Source of the DNA: a virus
IMG/VR virus record: IMGVR_UViG_3300016665_000824
Span: 32,001 to 96,000 of that record
Strand: one strand, 5' to 3'
DNA length: 64,000 bases
The translations under genes and the position numbers were made by a program. Below, piece by piece: positions 4,719 to 31,595 of the stretch (within the stretch, counting starts at the first letter, position 1; every line of letters starts with the position of its first letter). The notes beneath the pieces were generated by a model that had not been told where the DNA came from, ran no database searches, and saw only the letters and a list, made by a program, of their open reading frames with translations.

Positions 4719-4787
4719 AATAGGTTAAAATAATTTATTCGCCGCAGCGTTGTAGCGCTCGGCGTGTGAATCACCAACCATAACTTA

Positions 4788-5321: not shown

Positions 5322-5352
5322 GGTAACAAGGACTTGAGTCCTTGTTACCTTA
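5319..5352. terminator. Strong hairpin (15-bp stem, 4-nt loop) spanning the stop codons of two convergent genes
   Basis: TAAGGTAACAAGGAC-TTGA-GTCCTTGTTACCTTA; no flanking U-tract. Confidence 0.45.
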
Positions 5353-11300: not shown

Positions 11301-13780
11301 AATAGGTATTCTGGAACCTGCCCAAAGATCTGGAAGAATGGCCCCGCGAGACTTTTTAGGGTCGCAATCACGTTCTTGAATACGTCAAACAGTATTCCTG
11401 CGAGACTCCCTACTTGAGCAGCGATCGCGTCTTTATTCTTTGAGAAATACTGGTAAAACCCGTCAAGTTCCGCTACTAAAGGTGCGAGGAATTTCTCCCC
11501 AGCGAGTCTGCCGATCTCATCAACTAGCTCTTGAATATTGCTAACAATCCCACCCACGGACTGAGCAGCTAGCTTGTTTCCAGACTTAAATGCTTCTAAT
11601 CGACCTAAAAGCTCTTTGACGAAGGTTCCTTGAGACTTCCACTTAGCCACCATCTCATTGTTGAGGTTAAGCGATTTGGCAAGAGCTGAGTTTTGGTCAA
11701 TAGTTCCCGAAGTTATACTAACAACCTCTTGACGGGCTTGATATAAAGGTATGCCAAGCGTTCCGAGTGCGGCGGCGAACGAGGTTGTAATATTAGCAGC
11801 GTCATTCAAGGACGCGCCAATGTTGCTTGCCTGCCCAGCAACGATCTGAAAAACCCCGACAAGATCTTTACTGGTTACGCCGACCAGCTCTAACGAGTCT
11901 TTACGAATTTTATCGATCGCCCCTTCAACCGCAGGGCCAACCGCCTTGATCGCTTGAGTTGGATCTGATACGCGATCGCCATTAACTACGATTCTATTGG
12001 TTGCCGCTAAGCTCGCCTGAGTAGAGAGTAGTTGCTCTTGGAGCCTGATGTTTTGCCCAATCAACAGATCGAAAGGGCCGTTTTGTACAAATCCTTGGAG
12101 TGCCTGCAATCCCAATCCCAAGAAAGCAAGTCTCTGAGATACTTCAAAGATCGCGTTGGTTGCCTTGCCAGCACCTTCGCTAATTAGATTGAATACTTCT
12201 AGTGGTTCCGTCGCCCCCGCCACTGGAGCAACCACTGCGGCGGCAATATCTACAGGTTCTTGCAGCTTCGGGGCTATCTCTTGAGTCTTTTGAAACCCCT
12301 TAACGATAACATCATCAACACTATCGATGACAGTACCGACTTCGGCAAGGATTGTTGATCTCAGTCCATCAACAAAATTCTTACCTGCGATCGCGCCAGT
12401 ATCTTTTAAAAGCGAACTAAATGTTCCGCCAAAAAACTCGTCAATCTTGGTTGCAAGTTTTTGCAGTGAGCCATCCCCGCTTCCGATAGAATCAATCGCC
12501 GCGCCCAACCCTCCGTCAATAGCATCGACAGCTTTTAGGGCTAAATTCCTGAGAGGCGCAAGGATGCTAGTATCTTCTACGCTAAACAAGCTATTGAGAG
12601 CCTGTCCAACGCCTCCCTTTTGAGTCTCTATTAAAGGGCGGAGGATGGCAAAAGCGGATCTTAAATCCTCTGGAATTGCTTTTTCTAGTCCATTAAATAA
12701 CTGTCCAGACAACGCATTTCCAAAATCTTGCAACTCATTAGAGGCAACAATCGACCCCAAATTTGCCACCCCGATCTTGTTGGCAATCAGTTTTGCTAGT
12801 GGTGGTAGTGGCAACTTATCTACAAGCTGAGGGATTCGCCCCGCTAGGCGGTTGATCAGCTCAGATACAGAGCCGCCTAACTGTTCGTCAAGAATTTTAA
12901 ATTGATCGGTCGCCTCAGATCTGCTGCCGACGATTGCCCTGCCGACCGATCCTCCTAAAGCGCTAGATAAGCGCCCTACAACTCTTTGTCCGTCCTCAAC
13001 GTTTGGCGCGATTGCGTTAACGGCAAAAGCTTTAGCAGCACCCGATACCGACCCACCAGCCAACTGCTTCGACACTTCCGACAGCAATCCAGTTTTTGCC
13101 GCAGTCCGAAATGAGTTGGCGACAATTGAGGTTAAATCCGCCCCGAAAGCTTGGTTAACAATACCTTTTAAAGCGTCGGGGAGTCCTCCCCCAACAACGC
13201 CCGAAATGAGTGAGTCGGCGATCGCGTTATCTAGCGTTCCAGTAAAAGCCTCAACTCCCACTCCAAGCTTGCGCTGAATTTCTTGATTTAGCTTTGAAGC
13301 CCTAACATTTGCTTCTAACGCTTTACCGAAACTGTTTGCAGAATCGCTAAGTATCTGCGTAATTCTCTTGCCGTTATCCGAAAATATTGCAGACTGAGCT
13401 TGCTCTGCCGACTGCTTAGATAAGAATCCTCCTCCGACATCTTTTCCTGCAGAGGTAATCCCCTTGATTACCTTTGAGAGCGGAGCTAGTTTTGAAACTG
13501 CACTGTCGGCGACATTCGAGATCTGTTCTAAAAATATTTTGCCCGACTGCGTATCTAGTACATCTCGAACCGACTGAATTGCGTCTCTCAGCCCTCCAAA
13601 CGTGCCAATCGCGGTTGCCCCTACCGTGCTGATCGTTCCGCCAAGGGCTTGTACAGATCCCTTTGTTACGTCCGCAACAACACCAACACTTTTTAGACCA
13701 GCAGCTATCTCCGAAACTTGTTTGCTTGCTTGATCTTTCGCCTGTATTAAGATCTCAACAATATTGGTTTGCGGAGCCAT
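5345..13780 (-). CDS. Giant virion protein, tape-measure-like (tail length tape measure or ejection/internal virion protein)
   Basis: Uninterrupted 2811-aa ORF; Gly/Ala/Ser-rich hydrophobic N-terminal third, long E/K/Q/A/L-rich coiled-coil centre, internal tandem repeats, position between head and tail-fiber genes. Confidence 0.6.
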   Translation of the reverse strand: MAPQTNIVEILIQAKDQASKQVSEIAAGLKSVGVVADVTKGSVQALGGTISTVGATAIGTFGGLRDAIQSVRDVLDTQSGKIFLEQISNVADSAVSKLAPLSKVIKGITSAGKDVGGGFLSKQSAEQAQSAIFSDNGKRITQILSDSANSFGKALEANVRASKLNQEIQRKLGVGVEAFTGTLDNAIADSLISGVVGGGLPDALKGIVNQAFGADLTSIVANSFRTAAKTGLLSEVSKQLAGGSVSGAAKAFAVNAIAPNVEDGQRVVGRLSSALGGSVGRAIVGSRSEATDQFKILDEQLGGSVSELINRLAGRIPQLVDKLPLPPLAKLIANKIGVANLGSIVASNELQDFGNALSGQLFNGLEKAIPEDLRSAFAILRPLIETQKGGVGQALNSLFSVEDTSILAPLRNLALKAVDAIDGGLGAAIDSIGSGDGSLQKLATKIDEFFGGTFSSLLKDTGAIAGKNFVDGLRSTILAEVGTVIDSVDDVIVKGFQKTQEIAPKLQEPVDIAAAVVAPVAGATEPLEVFNLISEGAGKATNAIFEVSQRLAFLGLGLQALQGFVQNGPFDLLIGQNIRLQEQLLSTQASLAATNRIVVNGDRVSDPTQAIKAVGPAVEGAIDKIRKDSLELVGVTSKDLVGVFQIVAGQASNIGASLNDAANITTSFAAALGTLGIPLYQARQEVVSITSGTIDQNSALAKSLNLNNEMVAKWKSQGTFVKELLGRLEAFKSGNKLAAQSVGGIVSNIQELVDEIGRLAGEKFLAPLVAELDGFYQYFSKNKDAIAAQVGSLAGILFDVFKNVIATLKSLAGPFFQIFGQVPEYLFKSLAGAVKAFSDAMSLTLAVVQPAINVFEQIAGVVGPLGGIWIGISVGAKVLSGAIGALNKGFSLMFNLVPGLGEVLFLLDKRTNGVVNTFANLSSVVGRGSAGFLLLAENLNKIPGAAGLVQKELGKVLGAFSPFAGVITAALPTLGGFGVKLIGLTQAFPALGTALQGFTKAAPIALTAFSGIVGKSQLFGSFSPLIADAAKSLGKFADVATNTEKVNSIFSNSLKAAGAAARSFAVSTALLGAGTFVGFVFFDQLILKNKGLQKIIQDVTAAIRKFADTVGSVLAPVIKVVADTILPFFTFGENSNPFQKVVGGLLIAIAVTKLFGGTISNVFKTINTGISGAGASIGETFGRIKKLNDSVREILGGKPVQSTTLNPTQVVAAKREVSGLKQQAIVSQKDSTDLSLTPEARAAALKSYQETTDRIKSLRSQIIANPIPVPFTKQFAEDIGAIATKTKTSLKSLGDSIGSFISDIKGRFSQDSSQKTGIFANLPAQIENTKASIRNAFANINIPASLVNLRNGVEKAFSQINVPTSLANARLGLDKFFRELNIPASLANSRIAIDKFVNQVKSISLPDLSLKNLGAGLKTGFQDALSGVKDFGSRAKSSFADFTQNANVSVGGLYSNLKKGAVGATSFISENVKGISKSFAALAAEIGPTLLLSAAFAAITTLVGYVDQETKAATANVDKLNDALKDSDARVAILNKSQGKDAASELANLTSEREKYVASIQDKSILQDDPTLKLYDQQLAKLKELRGLQSKPTNSEDALREKVKKERDNIGTRVTEGFALTGDAAREGLRTVTFGASDKLGLGDRAGNLEEKAVQIRLQDNKNVLNQSASRRVDLGIGLSAQKKLQEDLIKLEQEKSKAEALSDKDGAARFDIQIENKKKEIAERNNNIEAIINQVQAVEGLDAERDRELEALRKLQESYKSVNLQIQAIDLPRIGNAIEQATSKYNAALDALNKSAGDPALFKAKLGELLETANALQDAGILRADEVAGAFQKVATNVSADRDLQIKAQEAITAAYKKEADRRIAIYDAQLSQIQALLATGRISESESIALSGQLEEKKIQAQSEADQKALRARQQILETNANEQKQQIKRDRELAEAQLAAATGDPSKIRQVREAQAPVLQGKIDDTSQQIKDAEARKKALQESISTGVAGDNAAEDVKKVTDELAVLQSRLNSLQSQKGTLDSTLKLSEDTQGQLEGITKQIEDGEKALSSLKAGNAETLQRFNTVKDAPFFNSSEYTAQIKAEQDAIAKKESELRTLQTKRDQLSSIAKPDAERQNLAKNSIADANKKELDLVKATAAQKARLEEDADNKRKDAEAKIAKARSERFVKGLDAQIKETLAAEKVGETQRLAQIAQLRKSGIKLESEIKLQETAERKRSITLELQLEQQKQKAIADLEKKGVGVSKETKNANLIKVAELSKQLAEAELAAIEGLVSAVRDRLVLESQKYAVTIEQQNLKLERQKLLFTALEKGLENQSRLSESANKLAQSTVALRESEFAALNKIYDRQQAAIRAAGGQGNFADLELEEKKLILAEKLAVLKLNSLKQQQKFEAESLEREIQKRDLLLERKKVENEIAIAKKKVDIASQDAAIKAAELEVKLRPQSEEAKLKLAQAKLGQEKNFLELGGLQQEKGFIADEAKVNEIVNKNDRQALANKQQGETNTAIGDVIGATRDPALQERLQREQLARLTQNTGTAALTTTDVSNAVAAASQPVNVRGASFKNPTSALLGQVEQGGVFTAAPEPKPDNAPFATSFEELAKKYPDKGMAGSFEELNKKYPAQANSFEELNAKYGGKPTEEAKPEQAIASSFDKLTQQIDEGFSKVLVAPDLKVKDLTAGLEAEFNRVSKQISENPVTLKIDDKAFEEAQKKLDKPIALLDEGQLQRAEALAQAFGSLGGKDLVPQQQGNPTGAALGTSGNITVNAPIAINTQSNISSAAGVGNDVQKAVNDTLNNVLRRVAGVTSGVR
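5872..6000 (-). repeat. Three imperfect tandem ~42-48-bp repeats near the 3' end of the giant ORF
   Basis: Encodes SFEELAKKYP / SFEELNKKYP / SFEELNAKYG. Confidence 0.65.
9581..9820 (-). repeat. Four tandem 60-bp (20-aa) repeats inside the giant ORF
   Basis: Encodes NIPASLVNLRNGVEKAFSQI / NVPTSLANARLGLDKFFREL / NIPASLANSRIAIDKFVNQV / NLPAQIENTKASIRNAFANI. Confidence 0.7.
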
Positions 13781-13823: not shown

Positions 13824-14171
13824 TTACTTTTGCTTTAGCTTTTCTGGCTCATATCGCGACACCAAGGCGATAAGCAGATCTTGAGACGGCTTTATTTCTG
13901 AGTCAGCCCATTCTTTGAAATACTTGTGATATCTAGAACAGCTAGCCTCGGCTTTAGCGGTTTGCTCTAGGGCTAGCTGCTTCGTGGGGTCGCTATCAGG
14001 GAGGGTCTTTAACCCCTCCTCTTTTCCTAGCAGACTATACGAAGTCGAGCAATACCTGTAATCTTCGGCGATCGCTGTCGCTGCCGACTTGGACTGAAAA
14101 GACCTTACAGCGCCAACTGAAAGCAACGCTAGCACGACTACCGCCCCTAATGTGATTGGATTAAGCTTCAT
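13824..14171 (-). CDS. Small protein with N-terminal signal/anchor sequence
   Basis: Likely start at MKLNPITLGAVVVLALLSVGAVRS (ATG 14171) rather than track start 14288, which overlaps upstream gene; two Cys. Confidence 0.4.
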   Translation of the reverse strand: MKLNPITLGAVVVLALLSVGAVRSFQSKSAATAIAEDYRYCSTSYSLLGKEEGLKTLPDSDPTKQLALEQTAKAEASCSRYHKYFKEWADSEIKPSQDLLIALVSRYEPEKLKQK

Positions 14172-14220
14172 TGATTTTTGTGATTTCTTCACGAAGATTA
14201 TAGCGCGATCGCCTCGCAAT

Positions 14221-16428
14221 TTATCCCTTACCGTTACTGGGTTTTGAGGTTGGCTTATAGACATCATAGAGAGAGCCAATCTTCCCATTCTTCTTAGAGG
14301 CGTATAAAATCATAGGATCTTGACCCTCCATAGGGGCGAAGCCAGCCTTTTCGTAAATACTCTTACGCTTACTGCCAGCCCCATCTTTGTCATAAGCCCC
14401 AGCCGTAAGAATAGAGTTGTCGGGCATAGCCTCAATATGCTTGGCAAACGAAGCCTTTGTCATGCGAATAATTTGTTTTGCTCCAGAAGCCCCAAGGTTG
14501 GCGGACTCCTCCTTGTTATTGGATTCGTTTATGGCGAAAGAAACCTCGTAGACACTTCCTCCAGAAGCTTCTTTTTTGTACACAGTCGTAAAGGTGTACA
14601 AGGCTGGTCCAACAGAAGCTACAGTATAAACCCCACCATTCTTTCTATCCCTGTAAGTGAAGCTGTTCGATTCTTTGTCTACGTCAATAAGATCCCGACC
14701 CTTAATAGACTGAGTTTTTCTTGCCAAGGCGAGCTTGGTCATTCCGATAAGACCTTTTGCTTTGTCTTTAAGGGCTGGGCTTAAATCAGATCTATCCAAA
14801 GCCCGATCCGCCACTTTCCCCAAGGCTAAACTCTGCTTGTAGGTCATAATCAGTGCAACATCTGAAATCTTGTAATCTTTTGTCGCTTGAATATTGCCAA
14901 TACCGACGACTCCAGCTACCACTGAACCTACGCTACCTGCGACGATCGCTGCCTTGCGAGCGCCTTTGTTAGAAAGTAGTCCGATAGCCTTGTCTACTGG
15001 TGTCTCCTTTTTTTGTAGGGGCGGCTGAGGTATAGAGAATTCCGTTTTTGGTTGTTGTGACTCGCTTGGATTACCCCCTTTTGTTGACTTGCCTCGGTTT
15101 GCAGCGATCGCCGCCGCACCACCAACTAAGGCAGCAGCACCTAAACCAGTACCAACATTTCGGGCTAAATTATTCTCGCTTTTTTTCTCGCCGATCTTTT
15201 GACAGGCGTTTCCACGCTGGACATAGCCTTCCTTGCATTTGAGCGTTCTACCCTTGTCGTAGCGCAAAGATACCGACATACGCCCCTCAAGATAAGACGA
15301 ATCATTCTGTAGATCGGCATCAGTCCGCCTTGTAGTTGCACTTTGATAGATGTTGCTAAATAGGTAAAGAACTTCGATATCCTCGTCATCCTCAACCGAG
15401 TCTCCCCTCTTCTCATTTATCTGGGATATCTTCTCGTTTGTTTTAGCCTCTACGTTTTCTCTAAAGTCCTTGAGTCCACCCCTCTTTGTTGCGAGGGTGA
15501 GAGCAGTGCCAAGAAGAATGGTGTCTCGCTCAGCTCTTCTTAGAACCTTCTGAAAAGGAGATAAGGTAGATTCATTCTTACCACCCGAAATCGACTTGGA
15601 CACATATTCTCCCGCAATGCGTTGAATTTCAGGATCTTTAGACCACTCGGAAGCTACGGATGAGCCATATTTCAAGGCTGCGCTACGAGCTTTTGGATTG
15701 GTCAGCACCTCTTTTGCGATAACCATAGAGGCTTTTTTCTTTGCTTCAACTAAGTTTGTTTCGTTACTAAATTCAGGAGCGACAAAAGTTCCGACAGCGC
15801 TGGCTACTTCTGGCTTTTCCGCAAGAATACTCAAAATTGCGGTAGCTTTATCTCTGTAAGCAGGATTGTTTAAATCCTTGATGCGCCTTTTAATCAATAC
15901 TTGAGATAAATTGTCTCCCTCACTTTTGATTTCACCTTTCTTCTCTTTTGACAAAAGGTTTGCCACTACAGAGACAGTCTTGTTCACCGCCACCGAAGCC
16001 GCCTTTTTCGTTGCGCCCAATATAATCTGATTCTTTTTCTGAGAGATCGCAGCCCCAGTTACCGCAACAACGGTACTGGCTCCAGCCGCCAAATACCTCT
16101 TCGCCAGAGGAAGTCCTTTCTCCCCTTTTTTGGAGGCAGTAGAACTCGAAAGAAGGGCAACAGGGGCGGGATCTACGGCTCTGTTTTCTTGCGGAGATCT
16201 TCTCGATGCGATCGCCGCCACACCGCCGACTAAAGCCGCAGCCCCTAGCCCTGCGCTAATATTTCGAGCTAAATCACCCCCAGCCTTCTTCTCGCCAATC
16301 TTCTGGCAAGCAGCCCCGCGCTGTACATAACCTTGCTTACACTTAATCTTCTTCCCCGCATCTTGACGTAGAGCGACAGACACCTGCCCCTCAAGATAAG
16401 CTAAGTCACTGGCTAAATCTCTCGTCAT
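14221..16428 (-). CDS. Cys-motif/hydrophobic-helix protein with duplicated anchor module and GNAT-like C-terminus
   Basis: 735 aa; two copies of CK[QE]GYVQRGxAC followed by GLGAAALVGG-type hydrophobic segment; C-terminal GASGAK...IYEKAGF resembles GNAT acetyltransferase motifs. Confidence 0.6.
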   Translation of the reverse strand: MTRDLASDLAYLEGQVSVALRQDAGKKIKCKQGYVQRGAACQKIGEKKAGGDLARNISAGLGAAALVGGVAAIASRRSPQENRAVDPAPVALLSSSTASKKGEKGLPLAKRYLAAGASTVVAVTGAAISQKKNQIILGATKKAASVAVNKTVSVVANLLSKEKKGEIKSEGDNLSQVLIKRRIKDLNNPAYRDKATAILSILAEKPEVASAVGTFVAPEFSNETNLVEAKKKASMVIAKEVLTNPKARSAALKYGSSVASEWSKDPEIQRIAGEYVSKSISGGKNESTLSPFQKVLRRAERDTILLGTALTLATKRGGLKDFRENVEAKTNEKISQINEKRGDSVEDDEDIEVLYLFSNIYQSATTRRTDADLQNDSSYLEGRMSVSLRYDKGRTLKCKEGYVQRGNACQKIGEKKSENNLARNVGTGLGAAALVGGAAAIAANRGKSTKGGNPSESQQPKTEFSIPQPPLQKKETPVDKAIGLLSNKGARKAAIVAGSVGSVVAGVVGIGNIQATKDYKISDVALIMTYKQSLALGKVADRALDRSDLSPALKDKAKGLIGMTKLALARKTQSIKGRDLIDVDKESNSFTYRDRKNGGVYTVASVGPALYTFTTVYKKEASGGSVYEVSFAINESNNKEESANLGASGAKQIIRMTKASFAKHIEAMPDNSILTAGAYDKDGAGSKRKSIYEKAGFAPMEGQDPMILYASKKNGKIGSLYDVYKPTSKPSNGKG

Positions 16429-16763
16429 TTCTTGCTCCGCTTTTTAATCATCTTGCTAATAGCTTCAGCTCCATTAGCCACTTTAGACTCAACCTTGCCC
16501 GTAGCTCGACCCGTGTTAAAGATTGCCTTACCAGTATTAAAATCCTCTTTCAATCCTGTTTTACCTTTATCGGCAAGTTTGGCGATCGCCACAGCAGTCA
16601 GTCCCGCGATCACGCCACGACCAACTGCGCCAGCAACACTCTTAATCGCTGTTTTAAGTTTGCCTTTACCACAAGTAGCGCCTTGAGGGATGCAGTAGGT
16701 TTTACCATCTTCTCCTTGGCAGGGTTTGCCGCGATCGCACGTTGTGTCTAGTCTAATCTTCAT
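16425..16763 (-). CDS. Small Cys-knot/hydrophobic-helix protein
   Basis: 112 aa; CDRGKPCQGEDGKTYCIPQGATCG then Gly/Ala-rich hydrophobic helix; 4-nt overlap with neighbours. Confidence 0.55.
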   Translation of the reverse strand: MKIRLDTTCDRGKPCQGEDGKTYCIPQGATCGKGKLKTAIKSVAGAVGRGVIAGLTAVAIAKLADKGKTGLKEDFNTGKAIFNTGRATGKVESKVANGAEAISKMIKKRSKK

Positions 16764-18468
16764 ACTTATTTTTCACCGCTTTTTCCACCGCAAGTCTGGC
16801 TGCAATACCAATCGCGATCTTAACTATGGGATGAGAACCTTCTGCGTAAGAAGGAGAGGCTTTTTGTAACGCTGCAAATGAAGCTTTCGTGCCTACATAT
16901 TGCGTTGCCGCGTCAGAAAACATCAATAGCGCAGTTTTTTCTGTCTGACCTAACGAGGAGTCGGACAACGTTCTCTCTGTCGCATCACGAGCAACTTTAC
17001 CTCCAAAGGCTCCAACCAAACTAGAACCAATCTCATATCCAAGCATCTTGAGTTTGTCTTTTTCTTGCCTCCCAATCGATTTTAAGGTGACAAAATCGCC
17101 CACTTGCTGGACAAAGTTCTTTTTCGCTTGCGGAGTTTGAATCATGGCTTGGAGGCTTCTGCCTGCGCTTGAATTGCGGAGTTTTCCAATAGAGCGGGTT
17201 AAGCGATCTCCTAGTCCGCCCCTTCCTTTTACTGTGGATAGAATAGCCTCCCCGACCTGCATCCCGTCCCTAGCCTTCTGCCTTAAGTCGTGTTGCTTCC
17301 CCTTAGGGGCATTAGCGATTAGGGCTAGCGTAGTCGCCGAGGCTGCTGCTACCCCTATTGTTGCCAAGGTTCTTGAGGAAATAAAAGGTTTTCTCTTTTC
17401 TGACCCGCAGGTTGCGTTTTTTGGGATACAGTAAGTCTGACCGTCCTCGCCCTTGCACGGCTTTCCGCGATCGCAGGTAGAATCTATTCTATTTTGAATA
17501 GATCTTGTTTTTTTGTAGATGTATCCGCTAGTCCTCCCCGTCTTAGATCTCAAAAAAGAATCTGTTTCTGTACTGATTTTGCGTGCAAACCCCTGATAAT
17601 CCTGAAAACGATCGGTCACAGTTCTGGGTTGCTTGTCCTGCCATTTTTCTGTTAATTGCCTGTTTAGATTGGCGTGAACGTCAGCCAACTCTTTAGCTAG
17701 TGAGCTACTAGGAGAAAATGCCCCCTCTCTTTTAGCCTGTAATACAGAGGTGGTTTCCGCTCCAGTCGCACGAATTTCTTTGATGTTACTAAAAAACGCT
17801 CCTACTTTTAAGTCGGCGGGACTAAAGGCTGACGTATCTCCAACCCCAGCAATATCTGGGTGATTGTGAGTCATCAGTACTGTGTTTTTTGCGGCTTTTT
17901 GATTATACGCATCGGTTATTCCAAGAGAGACCGAGCCTATCTGCCCTTTTCTGATCAGTGAAGGCTTGCCATCCACGTCAAAAGCAAAAAGAGTCTCGAA
18001 ATCATTATGCTGGATCTTTCTTTCTGCCGCGTAAACACTAATTGCAAGTTCTTTGGGGAGGTGGCTATATGCAGGAGCATCTCTTGCGGGAATGCCATTC
18101 TTGGCTACGTCTTCTCGTTCTTTCGCAAACTCCTTATAGGTTTCAACATCATCAAGCTTCTCTCTTATAACCTTATTGGCAATCATGGCTCCCACCCCCA
18201 GCGCTAAAAACTTAGCCGCCGCCTGAGGATCTTTAGAAGCTAATGCGGCTCCTGCCGCTAGTACAGTCAGTTTTGCAAGAGTTCCAGTTCCATCGCCCTT
18301 ACTAGCTGTGGATAGGGAACCAGTTCTAGATATCGGATGACAGGCGGAGCCTCTTTGGACATAACCTTGCCGACAATTGATTTTTTTGTACTCATCCCGC
18401 CTCTCCACATATCGCGATCGCGACAGTAGATACCCCATTTCGTACTCGTTCTTGTTATCTAGTCTCAC
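16753..18468 (-). CDS. Cys-motif/hydrophobic-helix protein with JAB/MPN-like (JAMM) signature
   Basis: 571 aa; N-terminal CRQGYVQRGSAC plus hydrophobic segment; central THNHP...SPAD (aa 200-219) resembles RadC/JAB HxH...SxxD; C-terminal CDRGKPCKGEDGQTYCIPKNATCG plus hydrophobic segment. Confidence 0.55.
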   Translation of the reverse strand: MRLDNKNEYEMGYLLSRSRYVERRDEYKKINCRQGYVQRGSACHPISRTGSLSTASKGDGTGTLAKLTVLAAGAALASKDPQAAAKFLALGVGAMIANKVIREKLDDVETYKEFAKEREDVAKNGIPARDAPAYSHLPKELAISVYAAERKIQHNDFETLFAFDVDGKPSLIRKGQIGSVSLGITDAYNQKAAKNTVLMTHNHPDIAGVGDTSAFSPADLKVGAFFSNIKEIRATGAETTSVLQAKREGAFSPSSSLAKELADVHANLNRQLTEKWQDKQPRTVTDRFQDYQGFARKISTETDSFLRSKTGRTSGYIYKKTRSIQNRIDSTCDRGKPCKGEDGQTYCIPKNATCGSEKRKPFISSRTLATIGVAAASATTLALIANAPKGKQHDLRQKARDGMQVGEAILSTVKGRGGLGDRLTRSIGKLRNSSAGRSLQAMIQTPQAKKNFVQQVGDFVTLKSIGRQEKDKLKMLGYEIGSSLVGAFGGKVARDATERTLSDSSLGQTEKTALLMFSDAATQYVGTKASFAALQKASPSYAEGSHPIVKIAIGIAARLAVEKAVKNKYED

Positions 18469-21083
18469 TGGCTTTGCTTCCTCGCTTTACGGCGTTGAGT
18501 TAATGTTGCATTGAGTTTTTTGGCGATCGCGTCAGCAGCATTTACCGACAGGTAATCCACTGCGCTGCCGTTAGTTCCTGAGAAGCTATCGGGGTTTTTG
18601 CCCTTGAATGGAGTTCGACTCCAGAGATCGCCGTCCGACCACAGATCGGTCTTTGGAGTTTTTAGCAGATCTGTATCTACTTTTTTCTTATCTACCTTCT
18701 CTCCCCCAAAACCCAGCTCAGGAGTTCCCAAAGTAACAAGGTGAATTTGTTTAGCAATATAAGTCCCAGCAACATTTCCTTGCGAACCTGTTTTTTGCAT
18801 TGACTCCAAGATGTCCAAAGCCCTTTTTGCTGTTTCTCCACCTTGCTTTAGCCCAATAACAGAAATAGCTGGGTATTCAGTTGAGCTTCCCTCGTATGAG
18901 CTGTTTCCGATAGCGTAAAGTTCCGCAGCCAACTTTACAGCTTCAGGGTCTCGTCCCGCTTTGAGGGTCTTACTCATCACGGCTTCGTAGCTTCTTGCCA
19001 TAGTGTCAATAACACCCATAACCCTGCCCCTAGACTGAGGCGGGAGGGTTCGATCAAAAGAAACCACGTCGCTTTGATCGTAGAAGTCTTTCTCTGCTTG
19101 AGACTGAAGCTTTGATCCGTTACTTTTAATTGATTTGCCCAGAACATCGCTAGGAGTTTCTCCATCTCCTATTGCGATAATGACGCTGGGATTTATTGGG
19201 GTAGGCAAAGTCGTTCGTCCACTTGCTACAATCTCTTGAGCCTCAAGAGCAGACTTCGCTATATTGTTGTTGTATTTAACCCTCGCAGCCACAGCAGCAG
19301 TCACCGTTACTTGACCAAGTACGGCTACAGTATTAATCGCTGCTGCTGTGGGATTGTCTTGATATTTATCCTTGATCGCAGAAACCAGATTCCACGTCTT
19401 TCCTAGCGTTGGGTTTACCGCAGTGATCGCCGCCGCTATTTCTTTTGCCCCCTTGTCGCTAGACTTGCTTCCCGCAACAGAATTAGAGAAAAATCCAAAC
19501 GTCTCGCGGATTTTATCTCTGACCGTGCTATCGGTTAAGTAGTCCTCAATCTCATGCCCCTTGACCGAGCTGACAAACTGCGAAAACCTCTTAGGCAGGA
19601 TTGAGAAAGGATCGTTTTTGGAGGTAATAGTGCGGTTGTTAATGTTCGCCCAGTTCTTGTCGTCTTGAGTTGTGCCACCCGTCAAACCGAAGGATGCACC
19701 GCCAAGTCTGGCGATATTGAGGCGCTTCAGAACTTCTCCACCATCAAGCCCCCTAGCAGGCTTGATCCGACTCAAAATTTCGGCAGCTTCATCAACAACG
19801 TTGCCCCCAGAACCGTGACTAACTACGTTCAAAGGCTTGTCACGATACTTAGAGCCATAAGCATACAATTTAGAAGCCAGATCCACCGCAGCTTCGTTTC
19901 TGCCACCGACAATATTGCTTAGATATTTGCCAAAACTTTCTTTAGCTACATACCCCAGATACAAGGGATTGTAGTTCCCGTTTTTATCCTTTGGGAGAAT
20001 ATCGGTTGGAGGAACATTAAACTCCGAATTGTTGAAGGGGATGACCTGCTGGGTCTTGTTAAACCACTGTTCCCGTTTTGAAGTGTCAAGCGGAGTTTTT
20101 AAATATTCAGCGAGCTTATCACCAGAAGAGCCAAGGTTGGAAAATCCTCCTACAGCAAAAGTTAGTTGAGGTTTGGAGGTTGGCTCGACAGGAGTAGTTT
20201 GTGCTCTTTGGTACGCCATTAGCGCCGATTCAGGCAAGCCTTCTTTGTAGCGATCGCGAGCGGTCATCATTACCGATGAGGGAATGCCCAGCAGTACGCT
20301 TGCCGCTAATATGCCTGCCGCAGGGCGATTGTCTCCAAAAAACTTGCTAATCTTTTCGATATCTTTCCATGCGCCAGCAACGGGTTGGGGTAGCAAACTC
20401 TTAAGAGCTTTCTTGCTAGACTCTGCGCGATTCAAGCCTTCACGAACAATCTTCTGGCGATCGGGATTGGCTTTTTGCAGGCGAATTGATTCTCGCAATT
20501 GAGCCTGACTCATATACGAGTAGCGATACACGCCTCGTTTGCGAGCTTCTTCCTTTAATTCCCGAATATTCTTGTTATCAAGATCGTCCTCAACTGGGGC
20601 AACGCCAACAAATTTCGCTTTTTGAACTTGGTTTACCGCATCATTCAGATCGGAAATCTCTTGTCTATTTAAAGCTTCAGGAACGTCAATACGGCAGGTG
20701 TCCGTCTTTGCAATACAAGCGCCTTTGCAGGATAGTCCAACCTTACAGTTCTTGGGCTTAGAAATTTTATCGGTACGTTGACCGATATTGTTTGCATAAG
20801 CAAGTAAGTACTGATCTGCGTCAGTATCTACTGCATCAGTGCGACCATCCTGTACCTGCTTATACTCAATGCGATCTCCTAATTCCAGCCGAATCAGCTT
20901 TTGATCCTTGTCATCATCACGAAACAGACAAGTGATAAGCCCGTCATTACCGATATTGATATTAAGGATCTGATCGATACTCCCGTAGGCGCGAGAAATA
21001 ATGCGAGTTAATAGCCTCGCAATCGTTCTTCTTGCGGCGAGAGGATCTGTGGTTTGAATTGGTGGTGGTGCGATCGCGTACAT
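18465..21083 (-). CDS. Large virion/effector-like protein with possible alpha/beta-hydrolase-like region
   Basis: 872 aa; CKVGLSCKGACIAKTDTC motif; VVSHGSGG (aa 421-428), NDPF (aa 490-493), KGHE (aa 508-511) in the order expected of a Ser-Asp-His hydrolase, not canonical GxSxG. Confidence 0.5.
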   Translation of the reverse strand: MYAIAPPPIQTTDPLAARRTIARLLTRIISRAYGSIDQILNINIGNDGLITCLFRDDDKDQKLIRLELGDRIEYKQVQDGRTDAVDTDADQYLLAYANNIGQRTDKISKPKNCKVGLSCKGACIAKTDTCRIDVPEALNRQEISDLNDAVNQVQKAKFVGVAPVEDDLDNKNIRELKEEARKRGVYRYSYMSQAQLRESIRLQKANPDRQKIVREGLNRAESSKKALKSLLPQPVAGAWKDIEKISKFFGDNRPAAGILAASVLLGIPSSVMMTARDRYKEGLPESALMAYQRAQTTPVEPTSKPQLTFAVGGFSNLGSSGDKLAEYLKTPLDTSKREQWFNKTQQVIPFNNSEFNVPPTDILPKDKNGNYNPLYLGYVAKESFGKYLSNIVGGRNEAAVDLASKLYAYGSKYRDKPLNVVSHGSGGNVVDEAAEILSRIKPARGLDGGEVLKRLNIARLGGASFGLTGGTTQDDKNWANINNRTITSKNDPFSILPKRFSQFVSSVKGHEIEDYLTDSTVRDKIRETFGFFSNSVAGSKSSDKGAKEIAAAITAVNPTLGKTWNLVSAIKDKYQDNPTAAAINTVAVLGQVTVTAAVAARVKYNNNIAKSALEAQEIVASGRTTLPTPINPSVIIAIGDGETPSDVLGKSIKSNGSKLQSQAEKDFYDQSDVVSFDRTLPPQSRGRVMGVIDTMARSYEAVMSKTLKAGRDPEAVKLAAELYAIGNSSYEGSSTEYPAISVIGLKQGGETAKRALDILESMQKTGSQGNVAGTYIAKQIHLVTLGTPELGFGGEKVDKKKVDTDLLKTPKTDLWSDGDLWSRTPFKGKNPDSFSGTNGSAVDYLSVNAADAIAKKLNATLTQRRKARKQSQ

Positions 21084-21085
21084 GA

Positions 21086-22492
21086 CTATTTTTTAGCTTG
21101 CTTCTGGTTTTCTTCTTCCGCCTTGTTTATGGCGTGGGCTGCGAGAGCTAGAGATCCAGCAGTTGCCGCAACGTTCGCTCCGATCGCGCCAGCAACAGAT
21201 GCTCCGCGACCATGACCACGCGATCGTAAAGCTCTGTAAGTGCCGCTACCGATCGGCCCAGCCAGCGCCTGTACCGCCCCCTTTCCAAAAGCTTTGGCAG
21301 TCTCCCCAGCACAATTCTTTTCTTGAGGAATACAGATCTTTCCGCAAGGCTTAGTACCTGAACCGCACTTTGCGTCTTCACGAAGCTGCTCGACGAATGA
21401 GTCGATGCGCTCATCTAAGGATTCGTATCGACGACTTGTTTTATTCCACACTCTATTTGTAGTCATATTCGCTCTTCTAATTCGTTTTGGCATCTCCCTC
21501 CGAGTTGTTTTAACCTCAGATGCTTTTACGTCTACCGTATTATTCTTGTCAACAAAAGTCTGCATAAAACTTCTAGCGAAATTGTCTACGGCGTTAAGAG
21601 TTGATCGGGTGGTAGATCCCGCCTTTTTTGCCGCCTCGTTTAGGTCGATAGTTTTGTCGGCAAGATTCTTCCTCGCGACGCGATCGCGTTCTAGCCTTTC
21701 TTTTGTTTTTCGATACAACTTACCCGCCGCCGCACCTGCGGAACCAGCAGCTCTTGTTAATAGTGGCTTCTGAGGTTCGGCGATCGCACTACCACTACTC
21801 TTGCCCGATTCACTCGCAGCAATAGTTAATCCACCAGTAGATACCTTGGAAGCAGGAGGGTTGTATGGCAGTCGAGTTGGAGGTGGGGGTGTAGGAGTTT
21901 CAGGTTTATTGACGGGGACTAGTGCTCCACCGATTTCTGGCTTGGGCTTGGGTGATGGAAGGCGATCGGGCGGGGCTAGCCTCCTGCTTTCTATCTCGCC
22001 TTGCCGAGCTGCTTCTCGCTCAAGATCTTTCTTAGCCTTATATCGAAAATACTCCTCTTCTGCCGCAGCTTCCTCTGCTCTCCACCGCGCCCTCCGAGTT
22101 TCGCTATCCTTTTCGCCAGCCTTGTTTGCGCCCTTCTCGATAATGGGGCGAAGACCTACGGTGATGGCTTTATTCGCAATTACACCTGCGCCGAGTGATG
22201 CGGCAGTTCCACCGACCTTGATCGCCGCTTTCTTAGCAAACTCACCAACCTTATTGGGAGGTGACTGAGGAAGTATAGAAGCAGGCTCCGTCACAGGGAT
22301 AGGCTTCTGTTCTTCTGGCTTCTTCCTTAGCGCGATCGCTGCTGCCCCCAACCCACCCAAGGCAAGTGCAGCGCCAACACCCGCAGCCCCTTTCTTTGCT
22401 GCACTGGCATTGCGGAAGTATGAATAAGCCTTACGTCCATTTTGCGCTGGGACTTTAACTTCTACCTGTGCGTCCTGTCTTTCAGTACTCAT
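21086..22492 (-). CDS. Low-complexity basic/Pro-rich protein with Cys-knot motif and Gly/Ala-rich hydrophobic segments
   Basis: 468 aa; CGSGTKPCGKICIPQEKNCAG near C-terminus; several GAAGVGAALALGG-type segments. Confidence 0.5.
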   Translation of the reverse strand: MSTERQDAQVEVKVPAQNGRKAYSYFRNASAAKKGAAGVGAALALGGLGAAAIALRKKPEEQKPIPVTEPASILPQSPPNKVGEFAKKAAIKVGGTAASLGAGVIANKAITVGLRPIIEKGANKAGEKDSETRRARWRAEEAAAEEEYFRYKAKKDLEREAARQGEIESRRLAPPDRLPSPKPKPEIGGALVPVNKPETPTPPPPTRLPYNPPASKVSTGGLTIAASESGKSSGSAIAEPQKPLLTRAAGSAGAAAGKLYRKTKERLERDRVARKNLADKTIDLNEAAKKAGSTTRSTLNAVDNFARSFMQTFVDKNNTVDVKASEVKTTRREMPKRIRRANMTTNRVWNKTSRRYESLDERIDSFVEQLREDAKCGSGTKPCGKICIPQEKNCAGETAKAFGKGAVQALAGPIGSGTYRALRSRGHGRGASVAGAIGANVAATAGSLALAAHAINKAEEENQKQAKK

Positions 22493-22968: not shown

Positions 22969-23388
22969 CTAGAAGGCAATGAATGGTGGCACGGCAGGGA
23001 TACTGTCACCCATAAAACCGCCCGTTAGAACCAATTCCTTAAGCATTAGAAATTGCTGCCCATAGGTGGTTCGAGATAGATACACATCGGAGAATCTGCC
23101 ATTACCGTTTGCGGGGGTGGAGGTTCTCCGATTAGACATAGACTCACCAGTGTCGATCGCCTTAGCATTTGACACAGTGACAGTACCTTCCTCGGTATTG
23201 AGCGCCAAATAGTGAGCAGTCAGCAACATTACCGCCATTTCCGCATTGTCACCCCACTCTTCAATCGAGCAAAACCGCGAATAGAAATTCAGCCAGTTCT
23301 GGATAAAGATCAGCGACTCCCCAACAAAGTCAGAGAATGCTGCCTCGGAAGTGAAAGTATCTGCGGAAACGACGGGGTATGTTGCCAT
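22969..23388 (-). CDS. Putative head-tail adaptor/connector protein
   Basis: 139-aa ORF after capsid gene; AEMAVMLLTAHYLAL segment reminiscent of head-tail adaptor families (from memory). Confidence 0.35.
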   Translation of the reverse strand: MATYPVVSADTFTSEAAFSDFVGESLIFIQNWLNFYSRFCSIEEWGDNAEMAVMLLTAHYLALNTEEGTVTVSNAKAIDTGESMSNRRTSTPANGNGRFSDVYLSRTTYGQQFLMLKELVLTGGFMGDSIPAVPPFIAF

Positions 23389-24528: not shown

Positions 24529-25440
24529 TTACAATCCGTGCAACCAGAGTACGGAGTAGGGACGCTTGATAATCAAGCCGCCGTACTTCATACGGGCGGT
24601 GCGCTGCATCCCACGAGGAAGCTCAATCCACTTCTTGAAGGAGAAAGGCTCGGTAATGCGGAACTTGATTTTGTTCGGATCGCGCTTGTAGTAACAAGCA
24701 ACGTTAGAACCGCCATCACCAACACCTTCGAGAGGGAGTAAGGGGAAGTAATCCTTAATGTAAGTTGCCTTACTCAAGTAGTAATCAAGAACAGAATCAC
24801 TGTTGAAGTCACTGAGACGACGGAAGCTGATTTCATCGTGAGTTGCCTGAGCAAACAAGATCGTGTCAGGGGTCTCAATATTGCGGGTCAAACGACGCAT
24901 GGCGTTGCCAGTGTTGTTCAATACCGCAAGAAGCTGAGCTACCGTAGCATTGCTGTCAAAAGCGTATGCAGAGTAGGACTTCAAAGTATCAGGATGGTTG
25001 AAGAAACCGCGCAATTGACCGTCACCCAAGAACACCATCTTGTCGAGGTATTGTTGACCTGCTTCAAGCACGATCTGGACTTTTTCCGCCTCAATGCCAG
25101 TACCAAACTTTTGAGAAAGTTCGATTTCTTTGTCATTAAGGGTATAAGCACCAATATGCTCAGAAACTCTTTGGCGGAATTCTCTCGACACGATCTCGAC
25201 GTTAGGAACGTGAGTGGTGTAGTCGCGAGCAGCTTCCCACCGACCGATACCAGTTACCTTGCGATAGCCAGTTTCTTCGAGTTCAGGTTTGTTCCAATCT
25301 TCGCGAGGAAGGAGAGTGCCGTTAGCCCAGTAAAGCTGTTCGTACTCTTCTTTTTCGAGAGACTGTTCTAGTTCGACGAGCTGCTCTTTGAAGTAGCCCA
25401 CCGACCAATCATCATTCTTAATTTCAGTAGCTGTGGTCAT
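24529..25440 (-). CDS. Putative major capsid protein
   Basis: Start reassigned to ATG 25440 (MTTATEIKND), preceded by AGGAGG; track start 25728 runs through upstream gene; ~303 aa, downstream of protease/scaffold-like gene. Confidence 0.45.
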   Translation of the reverse strand: MTTATEIKNDDWSVGYFKEQLVELEQSLEKEEYEQLYWANGTLLPREDWNKPELEETGYRKVTGIGRWEAARDYTTHVPNVEIVSREFRQRVSEHIGAYTLNDKEIELSQKFGTGIEAEKVQIVLEAGQQYLDKMVFLGDGQLRGFFNHPDTLKSYSAYAFDSNATVAQLLAVLNNTGNAMRRLTRNIETPDTILFAQATHDEISFRRLSDFNSDSVLDYYLSKATYIKDYFPLLPLEGVGDGGSNVACYYKRDPNKIKFRITEPFSFKKWIELPRGMQRTARMKYGGLIIKRPYSVLWLHGL

Positions 25441-25450
25441 TGGACTCCTC

Positions 25451-26323
25451 CTAGAAGTTCGCGTAAACTTTGACAACCCTGTTGTTGTTGATGTCGATAA
25501 CAACATCGGAGCGGAAACTGGCGCGGGTCGAAGCGTCGATCGCGCTGTTCGCATTGGTCTTTTGGGCATAACCCTTAGAGCCAGCAGCAACAGAGATATA
25601 AACGGTGTCGGACTCGGCGATACTGGTTTCCAAAGTAGGAACCCAAATACCAGAGAGATCACCCAATCGTCGTTGAACATCAACCGCCAACTGGTTAGCT
25701 TCGTATCCAGCAGTCGCCGCTTCGCCAACCACGTCTTTTTGAACGGAGGTGTTTAGGCGGGTGATGCCGCAGATAGCGGAGATTGCGTCACCACTGTTAG
25801 GAAGGCGAATGCTGCCACCATTGAGAGTTCCAGTCACACGAGGAGTTGTGCCTGCGACCTTGGTGACAAACAATCCAAAGCCAATGCGAGATGGGGCTGC
25901 GGCTGCGGTAGTTGGAGTGGTAGGCACGGTTAAAGGTGCTGCACCGCCACCACTGACGCTCACAAACATCGGGGTATTATCCTTGCGATGAGTGAAGACC
26001 AAAGTTGAGGTGTTATTTACCACCGAGGCAATCTGGCTGGCGCGAAGGTTAGCGCGGAACGCTGCGTACAAGCCTGCGGCAAGGTCGGCGCGAACAGTTG
26101 AAGCGGTGGTAAAAGAGAAGGTGATTGGGTTATCGGAGGTATCAGCATCATAGATAGTGATGCTGTACACAGTGGCTGTAACGGGAGTTGCAGGAGTTGT
26201 AACCGTCCAAACTTCCTTAACGTAGCCACTGTCATTGTGATAGGCTTCAACAGAGCCAACACCCATGCCCTCAACCATTCCAGCGAGAGCCTGTGTGTAA
26301 TACTGGCGATAATTCTTTTGCAT
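25451..26323 (-). CDS. Ala/Thr-rich head structural protein (decoration or capsid-associated)
   Basis: 290-aa ORF between scaffold-like and capsid-like genes. Confidence 0.4.
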   Translation of the reverse strand: MQKNYRQYYTQALAGMVEGMGVGSVEAYHNDSGYVKEVWTVTTPATPVTATVYSITIYDADTSDNPITFSFTTASTVRADLAAGLYAAFRANLRASQIASVVNNTSTLVFTHRKDNTPMFVSVSGGGAAPLTVPTTPTTAAAAPSRIGFGLFVTKVAGTTPRVTGTLNGGSIRLPNSGDAISAICGITRLNTSVQKDVVGEAATAGYEANQLAVDVQRRLGDLSGIWVPTLETSIAESDTVYISVAAGSKGYAQKTNANSAIDASTRASFRSDVVIDINNNRVVKVYANF

Positions 26324-30869: not shown

Positions 30870-31595
30870 TTAATCAAAGAATTTTCTAACCGCCGCTTCT
30901 ACATCCTTGTTTGGCATCGGGTAGCACCAAATCGGCATCATCCGACCATTGCAAATCCTTTCTTCTTGTTTGCCAAGAGCCTCGCAAGTAGCTTTGACAA
31001 ATTTTCCTAATGTGGTGCGGTTTTTAGCTGTTACGGGCAAACTCAAAGATTCAGCAATTTCTACGGCTCCCATCCACTTTGTCTCCGAGGCTGGAGCGAT
31101 CGCCTTGATAACAGCCATTGCGTCGTTGATCGCAACATCTACAAGCATTTGACATAAGCGAGGGTCGGAATCAGCAAGCATATCCTTGATCTCAAAGACT
31201 GACTTCGCTGTTTCGAGTGCTATTACACGAGAGGGCAATGCGGGAACAGGAGTGGGGGTAGTAGGCACTGATTGTAACAATGCCTTCGCCTTAGAGAAGG
31301 CTTCAACCAGATCGAGCTTGCTCTGAACAACGGCTACCGTGTTTCGGCTCAGGGTCATTAAAGCGGTCGCTTGGTCTTCGTTGAGTAGCGCAAATTTAGG
31401 AGGGTTCCCTGTCGCCTTTTCGGGGACTCCGATTTTAAATCGGATACCCGCGAACCTTGCTTCAATCATGTCTTGGTACTTCTTGATGTTCCGCATAAAG
31501 CTCTCGTGATCAATCCCAAGTCGCTCGGCAATCAGTCGAGAGTCAACAAGCAATTCGCCATCTTCATTGATGATTGGTACAATACTTTCGGACAT
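30870..31595 (-). CDS. Rha-family phage regulatory protein
   Basis: 241 aa; N-terminal LLVDSRLIAERLGIDHESFMRNIKKY matches Rha domain pattern. Confidence 0.6.
   Translation of the reverse strand: MSESIVPIINEDGELLVDSRLIAERLGIDHESFMRNIKKYQDMIEARFAGIRFKIGVPEKATGNPPKFALLNEDQATALMTLSRNTVAVVQSKLDLVEAFSKAKALLQSVPTTPTPVPALPSRVIALETAKSVFEIKDMLADSDPRLCQMLVDVAINDAMAVIKAIAPASETKWMGAVEIAESLSLPVTAKNRTTLGKFVKATCEALGKQEERICNGRMMPIWCYPMPNKDVEAAVRKFFD

Follow-up and report, generated by a model that had tools for sequence, protein, structure and literature searches.

The head of phage T4 contains the internal proteins IPI-III and Alt, the latter an ADP-ribosyltransferase; they have a short N-terminal signal ending in a prohead-protease site that is common to them and the scaffold, and are injected with the DNA to work on the host. 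The podovirus ejection proteins T7 gp14/gp15/gp16 and P22 gp7/gp20/gp16 are head-internal too, leave before or with the DNA and have membrane-active segments; T7 gp16 also has an envelope-degrading domain. MuF-domain polymorphic toxins of temperate phages were reportedly described by Jamet et al. in 2017. The polyvalent proteins of phages and conjugative elements are large, contain 2-15 diverse enzymatic domains in a composition that varies between relatives, and are believed to accompany the DNA on delivery (Iyer, Burroughs, Anand, de Souza and Aravind 2017, PMC5512222); RadC-type JAB, InPase and ART-PolyVal domains belong to their repertoire, and the text of that paper mentions neither Cys motifs, nor transmembrane segments, nor cyanophages. 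Here we analyse a 64-kb stretch of viral DNA (positions 32,001 to 96,000 of IMG/VR record IMGVR_UViG_3300016665_000824; "the window" below means this whole stretch) and in it a cassette of six genes, most of whose proteins carry an undescribed, repeated leader module. The sequence is a metagenome contig, also present in Logan SRR6423794 and ENA ERZ27292652. Its nearest cultured relatives by capsid protein are Aphanizomenon phage vB_AphaS-CL131 (CL131) and Planktothrix phage PaV-LD, at ~33% identity and with the same gene order. We propose, with a probability of roughly 0.7, that the cassette encodes head-internal, protease-processed cargo/ejection and effector proteins of a CL131/PaV-LD-like cyanosiphovirus.

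Results

A leader module repeated through a cassette of coupled genes

The cassette consists of F468 (21086-22492), E872 (18465-21083), D571 (16753-18468), C112 (16425-16763), B735 (14221-16428) and A154 (13824-14288), all on the minus strand. A six-frame regular-expression scan over the whole window found seven copies of a Cys motif across five of these coupled genes (14221-22492); the other matches are Cys-rich strings in frames implausible as genes. Three copies are of a form called type A in the preliminary description, exactly the two in B735 and one in D571 that it had counted. Four are of its type B, in C112, D571, F468 and E872, so that its list of carriers was right as far as it went and had missed the E872 copy. 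Following transcription, the modules lie in F468 (ERIDSFVEQLREDAKCGSGTKPCGKICIPQEKNC, 21305-21445 on the minus strand, like all the following; 4-Cys form with tandem R-x-D; 35.7 bits against a hidden Markov model (HMM) of the module), in E872 (QRTDKISKPKNCKVGLSCKGACIAKTDTCRI, 20688-20813; 56.9 bits; type B expression match NCKVGLSCKGACIAKTDTC at 20694-20747), twice in D571 (module 1, ERRDEYKKINCRQGYVQRGSAC, 18313-18438, 2-Cys type A form, 40.5 bits; module 2, NRIDSTCDRGKPCKGEDGQTYCIPKNATC, 17401-17526, 4-Cys form with a 5-residue insert, 37.3 bits), in C112 (MKIRLDTTCDRGKPCQGEDGKTYCIPQGATC, 16665-16763, beginning at residue 4 and found by both regular expression and HMM) and twice in B735 (16279-16404 and 15175-15300, both 2-Cys and each followed by a GLGAAALVGGxAAIA helix).

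The pattern begins with an aromatic residue and an invariant R-x-D, often doubled 10-25 residues apart, and continues through 2-14 mostly basic residues into a Cys knuckle, C1-[KR]xG-xx-C2-G-xx(+5)-C3-[I/Q/H]-x5-C4. Type A has Arg in place of C2 and has lost C4. A Gly/Ala-rich hydrophobic helix usually lies 10-40 residues beyond the knuckle, and the leader as a whole measures ~60-90 residues. The helix that had been described behind the motif was seen for each window copy (e.g. GLGAAALVGGVAAIA), in E872 ~125 residues downstream. Across A154-F468, 23 of the 25 Cys are in motifs, the exceptions being E872 C52 and two in A154; among the 23 Cys of the five motif-bearing proteins C52 is the only one outside them, and D571, for instance, has Cys at positions 32, 43, 332, 338, 347 and 354 only.

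When the two B735 copies were compared, 46 of 67 residues were identical, 19 of these 46 with the same codon, and synonymous sites are saturated between module copies, bearing out the earlier remark that the modules are conserved as protein and diverged as DNA. Since the protein was conserved while the codons diverged, the B735 copies are old and have been held by selection. The motifs are kept in relatives with ~70% identity. Twenty-nine copies from five phages (the window, L005, L006, CL131 and PaV-LD; L0xx denotes a relative's locus and P0xxx a retrieved protein) align in one register, and all of them keep the R and the D. The module, which the preliminary description had rightly treated as undescribed, is not represented by any model in Pfam, NCBIfam or PHROGs.

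That description had taken types A and B for two separate modules, and the invariant R-x-D upstream of both had gone unnoticed. hhalign places type-A-only and type-B-only profiles in register (P=8e-5), and P0025 and P0027 carry type A where the homologous P0016 and P0020 carry type B; judged from these alignments, the types are probably variants of one module. Because the module is position-specific, under selection and found by profile in different phages, it is not a low-complexity artefact. We also rejected the idea that the Cys motif marks a lipoprotein or signal peptide, as the phage proteins have neither a lipobox nor a signal peptide. The suggestion of a zinc ribbon did not hold up, and a treble clef fares no better: the spacing is C-x5/6-C-x3-C-x6/7-C with no CxxC pairs, and the 2-Cys form keeps only Cys1 and Cys3.

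Homologues of the cassette proteins in CL131 virions

LC-MS/MS (liquid chromatography with tandem mass spectrometry) of CsCl-purified CL131 particles identified 23 virion proteins, including ORF044-049 (PMC6293099, Table S5). These six are the products of the module-bearing slot together with the tape measure, ORF049. ORF045 gave 123 peptide-spectrum matches (PSMs) per 453 aa, per residue about as many as the major capsid protein (MCP), and ORF048 gave 175 PSMs at 55% coverage (PMC6293099). The CL131 paper contains no description of the module, its repetition or an R-x-D link (PMC6293099), and the annotation of the CL131 and PaV-LD relatives goes no further than hypothetical or "virion structural" protein.

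We built a 42-position module profile from the window and E872/D571-family sequences, without those of CL131 or PaV-LD. It detects seven copies in CL131 gp044-048, ORF046 itself showing none, and six in PaV-LD (ORF061, 065, 078, 079, 081 and 085). E872 is homologous to the N-terminal part of CL131 gp048 (E=6e-17) and the JAB-like part of D571 to CL131 gp044 (E=5e-7), while the module region of F468 aligns with the module of the CL131 virion protein gp045. The proteins are alike in charge, with a pI of 9.3-10.1 for all those of the window cassette and 9-10 for CL131 ORF044-048; that of the CL131 tape measure is 6.55. From the E872/gp048 and D571/gp044 homologies, the shared module and the common slot we infer that the window proteins would also be virion components, a transfer from CL131 that is well supported.

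R-x-D sites in head proteins

An R.D[AS] site is expected ~0.2-0.3 times per 500-aa protein. The DUF2213 scaffold/protease gene of the window (26337-27827, minus strand; PF09979 and phrog_530) encodes eight R-x-D-[AS] sites, all within the C-terminal, scaffold-like coiled-coil half (26424-27248, minus strand). The relatives' DUF2213 proteins are similar, with nine such sites in PaV-LD ORF071, three in CL131 gp038 and 6-11 in four further relatives; over eight phages (the window and seven relatives) the counts run from 3 to 11, with shuffle p <=0.0005 in six and 0.0045 in CL131. R-x-D also occurs at residues 4-7 of DUF2213 proteins (AFRFDD, AIRFDS, EIRLDA) and around residues 9-12 of four MCPs, directly before a conserved xIGxF core (CL131 EIRMDAPTIGAF, PaV-LD TTRLDADEIGTF, L010 YRLDDATVGAF, L012 LRTDSPGVMAF). 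Tape-measure proteins showed no R-x-D enrichment, that of the window having two R.D[ASTK] sites in 2811 aa. In E872 the R-x-D segment is predicted to be disordered (pLDDT <50 at aa 103-109), and PHROGs annotates DUF2213 as a head maturation protease.

In T4, the scaffold contains gp21 sites, and so do gp23, the internal proteins and Alt. As there, one motif is common to the scaffold, the N-terminus of the capsid protein and the cargo leaders, and this distribution suggests that R-x-D is a head-maturation cleavage site. If it is, the cassette proteins would be inside the prohead when the protease acts.

Distribution of the module and exchange of cargo

Against 1.84 billion representative proteins the module profile gave 359 clusters at E<=1e-3, of which 54 reached E<=1e-10. 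The figures below refer to 138 proteins newly retrieved within the best 150 of the 359 clusters; they form two classes. Class 1 (93 representatives) consists of large proteins, the longest of 3641 aa, that contain R-x-D and 1-7 modules. Their modules hold 83% of all Cys on 7.7% of the residues, Cys outside the knuckles being depleted to 0.19%, and 52% of modules are followed by a hydrophobic helix, compared with 19% of random positions. The helices contain 31% Ala and 20% Gly, the median module spacing is 376 aa, and 56 of the 93 proteins begin no more than 30 residues from a module. The 42-residue module alignment was also run as a short-query homologue search, which returned 45 candidates with two small matches, its word index being unsuited to a query of that length.

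In the four class-1 contexts inspected (L005, L006, L013 and L014) the synteny is the same: DUF2213, cement-like, MCP, DUF4054, cassette, giant tape measure. In L013 a single ORF of 3641 aa makes up the entire cassette; it has ~7 modules (6 or 7 according to the threshold) and lies between the head-completion genes and a 2059-aa tape measure. Cassette composition differs across six IMG/VR relatives (L007-L012), among them L012 with six consecutive module-bearing ORFs. The module is real, under selection and, in the contexts inspected, specific to this slot of this phage lineage.

Class 2 comprises ~45 small proteins of 70-130 aa that have a signal peptide and carry the bare knuckle twice (C..G.PCG..CI.....CH) without R-x-D, such as P0086, P0092, P0099, P0100 and those encoded at L016 5001-5225 and L017 1662-1886. 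They have no Pfam or NCBIfam model. The single class-2 context inspected, that of P0086, is a bacterial chromosome, with the gene among housekeeping genes. The class-2 knuckle looks like an undescribed secreted Cys mini-domain common to bacteria and these phages. Its presence in signal-peptide proteins argues that the knuckle is an independent mini-domain working also outside the cytoplasm, and, these proteins being periplasmic, that a disulfide fits it at least as well as zinc.

These bacterial proteins, at least one of them chromosomal, together with the hydrophobic helices that follow the motif, would also fit a quite different role for the cassette, in which its products are late membrane proteins outside the virion (for lysis, superinfection exclusion or assembly) and the Cys motif is a periplasmic disulfide domain. 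However, the CL131 homologues were recovered at high coverage from CsCl-purified virions, the phage proteins start directly with the module and have no signal peptide, and the genes are translationally coupled inside a structural operon. We therefore regard such a role as very improbable.

Within class 1, relatives differ through the splitting, fusion and swapping of units. The B735 counterpart in L006 (L006 6815-9013) retains both leaders and the C-terminal domain and has other middle cargo: the segment between the leaders is an unrelated ~250-aa sequence (…ETHSTSKENAKKIIEGGGYLDPSK…) with no Pfam match, a clean cargo swap. E872 has 25 relatives, many with extra fused units; D571 has only four close ones in 5.8 billion proteins. 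In P0017 the JAB-like unit is fused to an E872-like unit, P0016 and P0020 have an added leader, helix and R-S-E-type ADP-ribosyltransferase-like domain, and P0025 and P0027 have an added LRAT unit and B735 C-terminal unit.

A Pfam survey of 36 large module-bearing proteins gave an overview of this cargo. LRAT was found in 9 of the 36, DnaJ in 7, and lipase/esterase-type alpha/beta hydrolases (DUF676, Lipase_3, Cutinase, PGAP1, Tle3-like) in ~7. PI3/PI4 kinase occurred in two, and Pkinase, HipA_2, NUDIX and His_Phos_1 in single members. P0028 had a significant InPase match, and the ART-PolyVal matches of P0020 and P0021 stayed below threshold. For GNAT there was only a sub-threshold Acetyltransf_10 match (E=7e-4) in an unrelated part of P0030.

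Does the cargo only help the DNA across the envelope? The proteins could form a purely structural ejectosome, a trans-envelope channel like that of T7 gp14-16 or P22 gp7/gp20/gp16, whose enzymes merely breach lipid or peptidoglycan. Lipase/esterase-like alpha/beta hydrolases and LRAT/NlpC-type domains are the commonest cargo, the proteins are basic, and the helices behind the modules resemble glycine zippers, all of which would suit a channel. DnaJ (7/36), protein/lipid and HipA-like kinases, NUDIX, histidine phosphatase, InPase, ART-like and RadC/JAB-like domains point instead to cytoplasmic targets, and high cargo turnover between close relatives fits an arms race better than a fixed channel. 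As the whole explanation a channel seems unlikely to us, and it overlaps with delivery of head-internal cargo and effectors instead of excluding it.

Domains of the window proteins

E872 comprises a small N-terminal alpha+beta domain (aa 14-80), an RTDA and an RTDK site, the 4-Cys knuckle, a helical linker with the hydrophobic helix at aa 255-273, and two alpha/beta-hydrolase-like domains (~aa 300-530 and 630-840) seen in an AlphaFold2 (AF2) model. Across 22 homologues, R103, D105, C113, C119, C123 and C130 vary little or not at all. The model, from a 22-sequence alignment, has a mean pLDDT of 74.6, with 80-95 over aa 290-530. In Foldseek its best Protein Data Bank (PDB) matches are Bacillus subtilis lipase A (probability 1.0, TM(target) 0.55-0.60), and in BFVD CL131 and PaV-LD proteins lead, followed by a Nodularia phage protein and generic viral alpha/beta hydrolases. 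CL131 gp048 matches DUF676 and Lipase_3 above cutoff. The alpha/beta-hydrolase fold of E872 is confirmed at the level of the predicted structure. S425 (HGSGG), D491 and H510 are present in the window clade of E872. The nucleophile elbow of the first lipase-like domain lies at 19809-19823 (aa 421-425, VSHGS); the second alpha/beta domain (IGLKQGG) has no serine there at all.

D571 carries two units in a single protein. The first has the 2-Cys module, hydrophobic helices at aa 60-103 and a RadC/JAB-like domain at aa 139-245 (HNHP...SPAD); the second has the 4-Cys module, a helix at aa 367-385 and an all-helical C-terminal domain that is conserved in an alignment of four homologues. E158, H201-N-H203-P and S216..D219 are invariant in these four, and HNHP and S..D are kept in CL131 gp044 and P0017. 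The JAB-like part had no Pfam or PDB profile match; hhalign gave a weak match to E. coli YicR (P=0.0016, probability 16%), in register at HNHP...S..D. The AF2 model of D571, from four close homologues, is poor (pLDDT 39), and Foldseek on it is meaningless. Of the enzyme-like domains guessed at in the preliminary description, the hydrolase-like one thus gained a fold through the Foldseek matches of E872, the JAB-like one has the HNHP...S..D signature and the weak YicR match, and the GNAT-like one gained no support, with no profile or structure match.

B735 likewise has two units, each made of a 2-Cys module, helix and cargo. Its conserved C-terminal cargo (~aa 520-735) recurs fused to other units in P0025, P0027 and P0097. 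B735 had no PDB or Pfam match, and a 5-sequence profile of the C-terminal domain was empty in PDB at E<=5. C112 is a minimal unit: one module, a Gly/Ala helix at aa 43-64, to which weak sub-threshold TMP_2 and Flp pilin matches are confined, and a short basic tail. F468 (pI 10.1) has an N-terminal RQDA (aa 5-8), a Gly/Ala helix at aa 37-55 and a second helix at aa 433-451, with all four of its Cys in a module near the C-terminus; Pfam, PHROGs and NCBIfam gave no family match. A154, encoded last before the tape-measure gene, is small and basic; it lacks the module and has a single hydrophobic helix (aa 43-61). Sequence and profile searches of PDB returned nothing for D571, E872 and B735, for the C-terminal domain of B735, for the JAB-like alignment or for the DUF2213 protein.

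Gene neighbourhood and the tail

Transcription runs from the DUF2213 gene through the cement-like gene (25451-26323), the MCP gene (24529-25440; PF09950), the DUF4054 head-completion gene (22969-23388) between MCP gene and cassette, G128, which adjoins F468 upstream, and the cassette to the tape-measure-like gene that borders it (5345-13780), all on the minus strand. Start and stop overlap by 4 nt at G128/F468, E872/D571 and C112/B735 and by 11 nt at D571/C112; F468 and E872 are separated by 2 nt, and B735 and A154 overlap by 68 nt. The preliminary description is upheld here, as all six of its ORFs are present with overlaps of 4 and 11 nt (apart from the F468/E872 gap and the longer B735/A154 overlap), and they lie as it said between head genes (DUF2213, MCP, DUF4054) and a giant tape-measure-like gene of 2811 aa. 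The mechanical MCP ORF (24529-25728, 399 aa from TTG) runs into the cement-like gene; the true start is almost certainly the ATG at 25440 (303 aa), which matches the calls on the source contigs.

The tape-measure-like protein has a weak phrog_305 match, zero Cys and zero modules. The head of CL131 measures 97 nm and its tail 361 nm; the CL131 giant protein syntenic to that of the window, ORF049, has 2131 aa (PMC6293099). This long tail and the syntenic protein indicate that the window gene is a genuine tape measure. A154 occupies the site where siphoviruses keep a frameshifted tail chaperone pair; the small ORF there differs between relatives (120 aa in L005, 74 aa in L013, a reverse-strand ORF in L014). 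In L005 a 408-aa OrfB_IS605/Cas12f-like TnpB gene (4363-5589), absent from the window, lies between the DUF4054 gene and the G128 homologue.

As the block lies directly upstream of the giant tape-measure gene, the usual siphovirus site of tail tube and chaperone genes, we considered that the proteins might be tail-lumen or tape-measure accessories, or the missing tail tube and chaperones, with the Gly/Ala helices as tape-measure hydrophobic segments. Several observations lean this way: the weak TMP_2 match of C112, the annotation of CL131 gp047 as similar to a "tape measure domain protein" and a BFVD match with the same label, and the abundance per residue of gp045 at capsid-protein level in a phage whose major tail protein its authors did not identify (PMC6293099). 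However, searches of A154-F468 against Pfam, PHROGs and NCBIfam gave no match to a tail-tube, chaperone or baseplate model at E<=0.1; the preliminary description had named confident matches to ordinary tail tube or baseplate proteins as evidence against its own proposal, and there were zero. The enzyme and effector domains, with content swapped between close relatives, are unlike conserved tail parts, and R-x-D is common to the cassette, the head scaffold and the capsid protein and not to the tape measure. A 3641-aa polyprotein, and the combined mass of the CL131 proteins, would also be a misfit for a lumen already filled by the tape measure. We consider a tail role for the cassette as a whole doubtful.

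A degenerate eighth copy of the leader (RYDACAPRAGYVC, 36251-36289, minus strand) lies outside the cassette, at the N-terminus of an 860-aa ORF (33812-36394, minus strand) in which the degenerate leader (LRYDACAPRAGYVC) is followed by two Gly/Ala-rich helices. This ORF sits between 36378-36953 and 33102-33812 (both minus strand), which match consecutive parts of phrog_220, a portal-MuF fusion profile annotated "minor head protein and DNA pilot" whose CL131 counterpart is one 1393-aa protein. Judged from these matches, the window portal/MuF protein seems to come in two parts, with an inserted module-bearing gene between them. PaV-LD is similar, in that a "minor head protein" gene follows each of ORF061 and ORF065, both module-bearing. 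The cassette proteins had no match to Phage_Mu_F in Pfam or PHROGs, and the MuF-like ORFs are separate genes elsewhere in the window.

The window also encodes a Rha/antirepressor-like regulator, a primase, a replication initiator and a DnaB-like helicase (30870-31595, minus strand; 52875-54632, minus strand; 57994-60952, plus strand), and regulator and replication genes in the contig indicate a complete phage genome context, not a prophage remnant. A megablast of the 10-kb region against phage genomes gave no match, and when 185,579 reference genomes were scanned with the E872 alignment no relative turned up, hence no sign of prophage copies. The lineage is one of virulent-type cyanosiphoviruses known from isolates, and the prophage setting assumed in the preliminary description is not borne out.

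Discussion

The evidence favours the cassette as a source of head-internal cargo, and the preliminary description's internal virion/ejection or virion-delivered effector proposal is strengthened by CL131 ORF044-048 in virions and by shuffled, effector-type cargo. In the scheme we propose, the proteins are chains of units, each made of a leader and an exchangeable cargo domain. They are synthesized from coupled genes or as polyproteins and, in CL131, are present in mature virions. In between, they would be incorporated into the prohead and cut at R-x-D into single units starting with knuckle and helix. On infection, by analogy with known ejected proteins, the units would exit with the DNA; the low Cys content outside the knuckles (0.19%) would suit unfolded passage through the tail. 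Going by domain types, the glycine-zipper-like helices may then insert into or cross host membranes, the envelope may be the target of lipase and LRAT cargo, and the cytoplasm that of DnaJ, kinase, ADP-ribosyltransferase, JAB and NUDIX cargo.

Several points weigh against this scheme. The virion location is carried over from CL131 by two domain-level homologies, the module and synteny, and the published CL131 data consist of coverage and PSM counts. DUF2213 is no more than a candidate protease for the proposed R-x-D cut, R-x-D might serve binding instead of cleavage, and the window MCP N-terminus (MTTATEIKNDDWSVGYF) aligns with those of the other MCPs but has K-N-D-D and not R-x-D-[AS]. A clear hydrophobic helix stands behind only about half of the modules, and the helices show no topology bias, K+R counts being equal on both sides in a positive-inside check. 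The common origin of the 2-Cys and 4-Cys forms is moderately supported by the alignments, cross-searches of type-A-only and type-B-only HMMs not being significant. In most E872 homologues of 35-45% identity the nucleophile Ser is V, A or T and the triad His is A or G, so the hydrolase domains may be mostly non-catalytic. Finally, one abundant cassette protein (of the CL131 gp045 type) may have a tail role.

More tentatively still, and with odds that we place below even, the leader might be a self-contained "pack, cut and deliver" tag, by which cargo is loaded into the prohead, freed by the maturation protease as a single unit and carried by the helix into or across the host membrane. If so, this lineage of phages of bloom cyanobacteria would be armed with interchangeable injected effectors that evolve in the manner of polymorphic toxins, and the leader would be a natural tag for loading foreign enzymes into phage particles; if it alone suffices for packaging, it would allow protein loading of engineered cyanophages. 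The analysis gives a proposed role to a "hypothetical" block of 8-15 kb per genome in phages of bloom-forming filamentous cyanobacteria (Aphanizomenon, Planktothrix). It provides a searchable module profile, whose 359 public clusters include small bacterial secreted proteins, and it predicts an R-x-D specificity for the poorly understood DUF2213 scaffold/protease family that can be checked in existing mass-spectrometry data. A polymorphic, effector-like arsenal that appears to enter the host with the DNA also bears on cyanobacterial host takeover and defence evasion.

How does the cassette compare with known systems? Its true relatives are CL131 ORF044-048 and PaV-LD ORF078-085, ORF061 and ORF065, which have the same module and slot and partly homologous cargo, the other cargo being different. 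The T4 internal proteins are similar in that packaged cargo has a short leader with a site found also in the scaffold, although for the cassette cleavage and injection are inferred. There is no sequence relationship, the cassette having R-x-D where T4 has L/I-x-E, and the cassette leader adds a Cys knuckle and a hydrophobic helix to units that are chained in polyproteins of up to 3641 aa. With polyvalent proteins the cassette shares several unrelated enzymatic domains per polypeptide and a variable architecture, members of the family having 2-7 units and D571 and B735 two each. None of the polyvalent Pfam domains is found in the window proteins, however, and the relatives have InPase (P0028) and sub-threshold ART-PolyVal; unlike in polyvalent proteins, a fixed leader precedes each cassette unit, and the place of the cassette between head and tape-measure genes is fixed as well.

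The ejection proteins of T7 and P22, in contrast, form fixed, conserved sets without a repeated leader, show no sequence or profile similarity to the cassette, and belong to phages unlike the window lineage with its long non-contractile tail and true tape measure. MuF toxins resemble the cassette in having a head-associated carrier and swappable C-terminal effectors, and module-bearing genes adjoin MuF-like genes in PaV-LD and the window; their carrier is the MuF domain, whereas the cassette proteins lack MuF and have a much shorter leader. As far as these systems are defined by sequence, the cassette proteins thus belong to none of the T4, polyvalent, T7/P22 or MuF groups. Virion-delivered multi-domain proteins are an already known kind; what is new here is the undescribed repeated leader and the predicted protease specificity.

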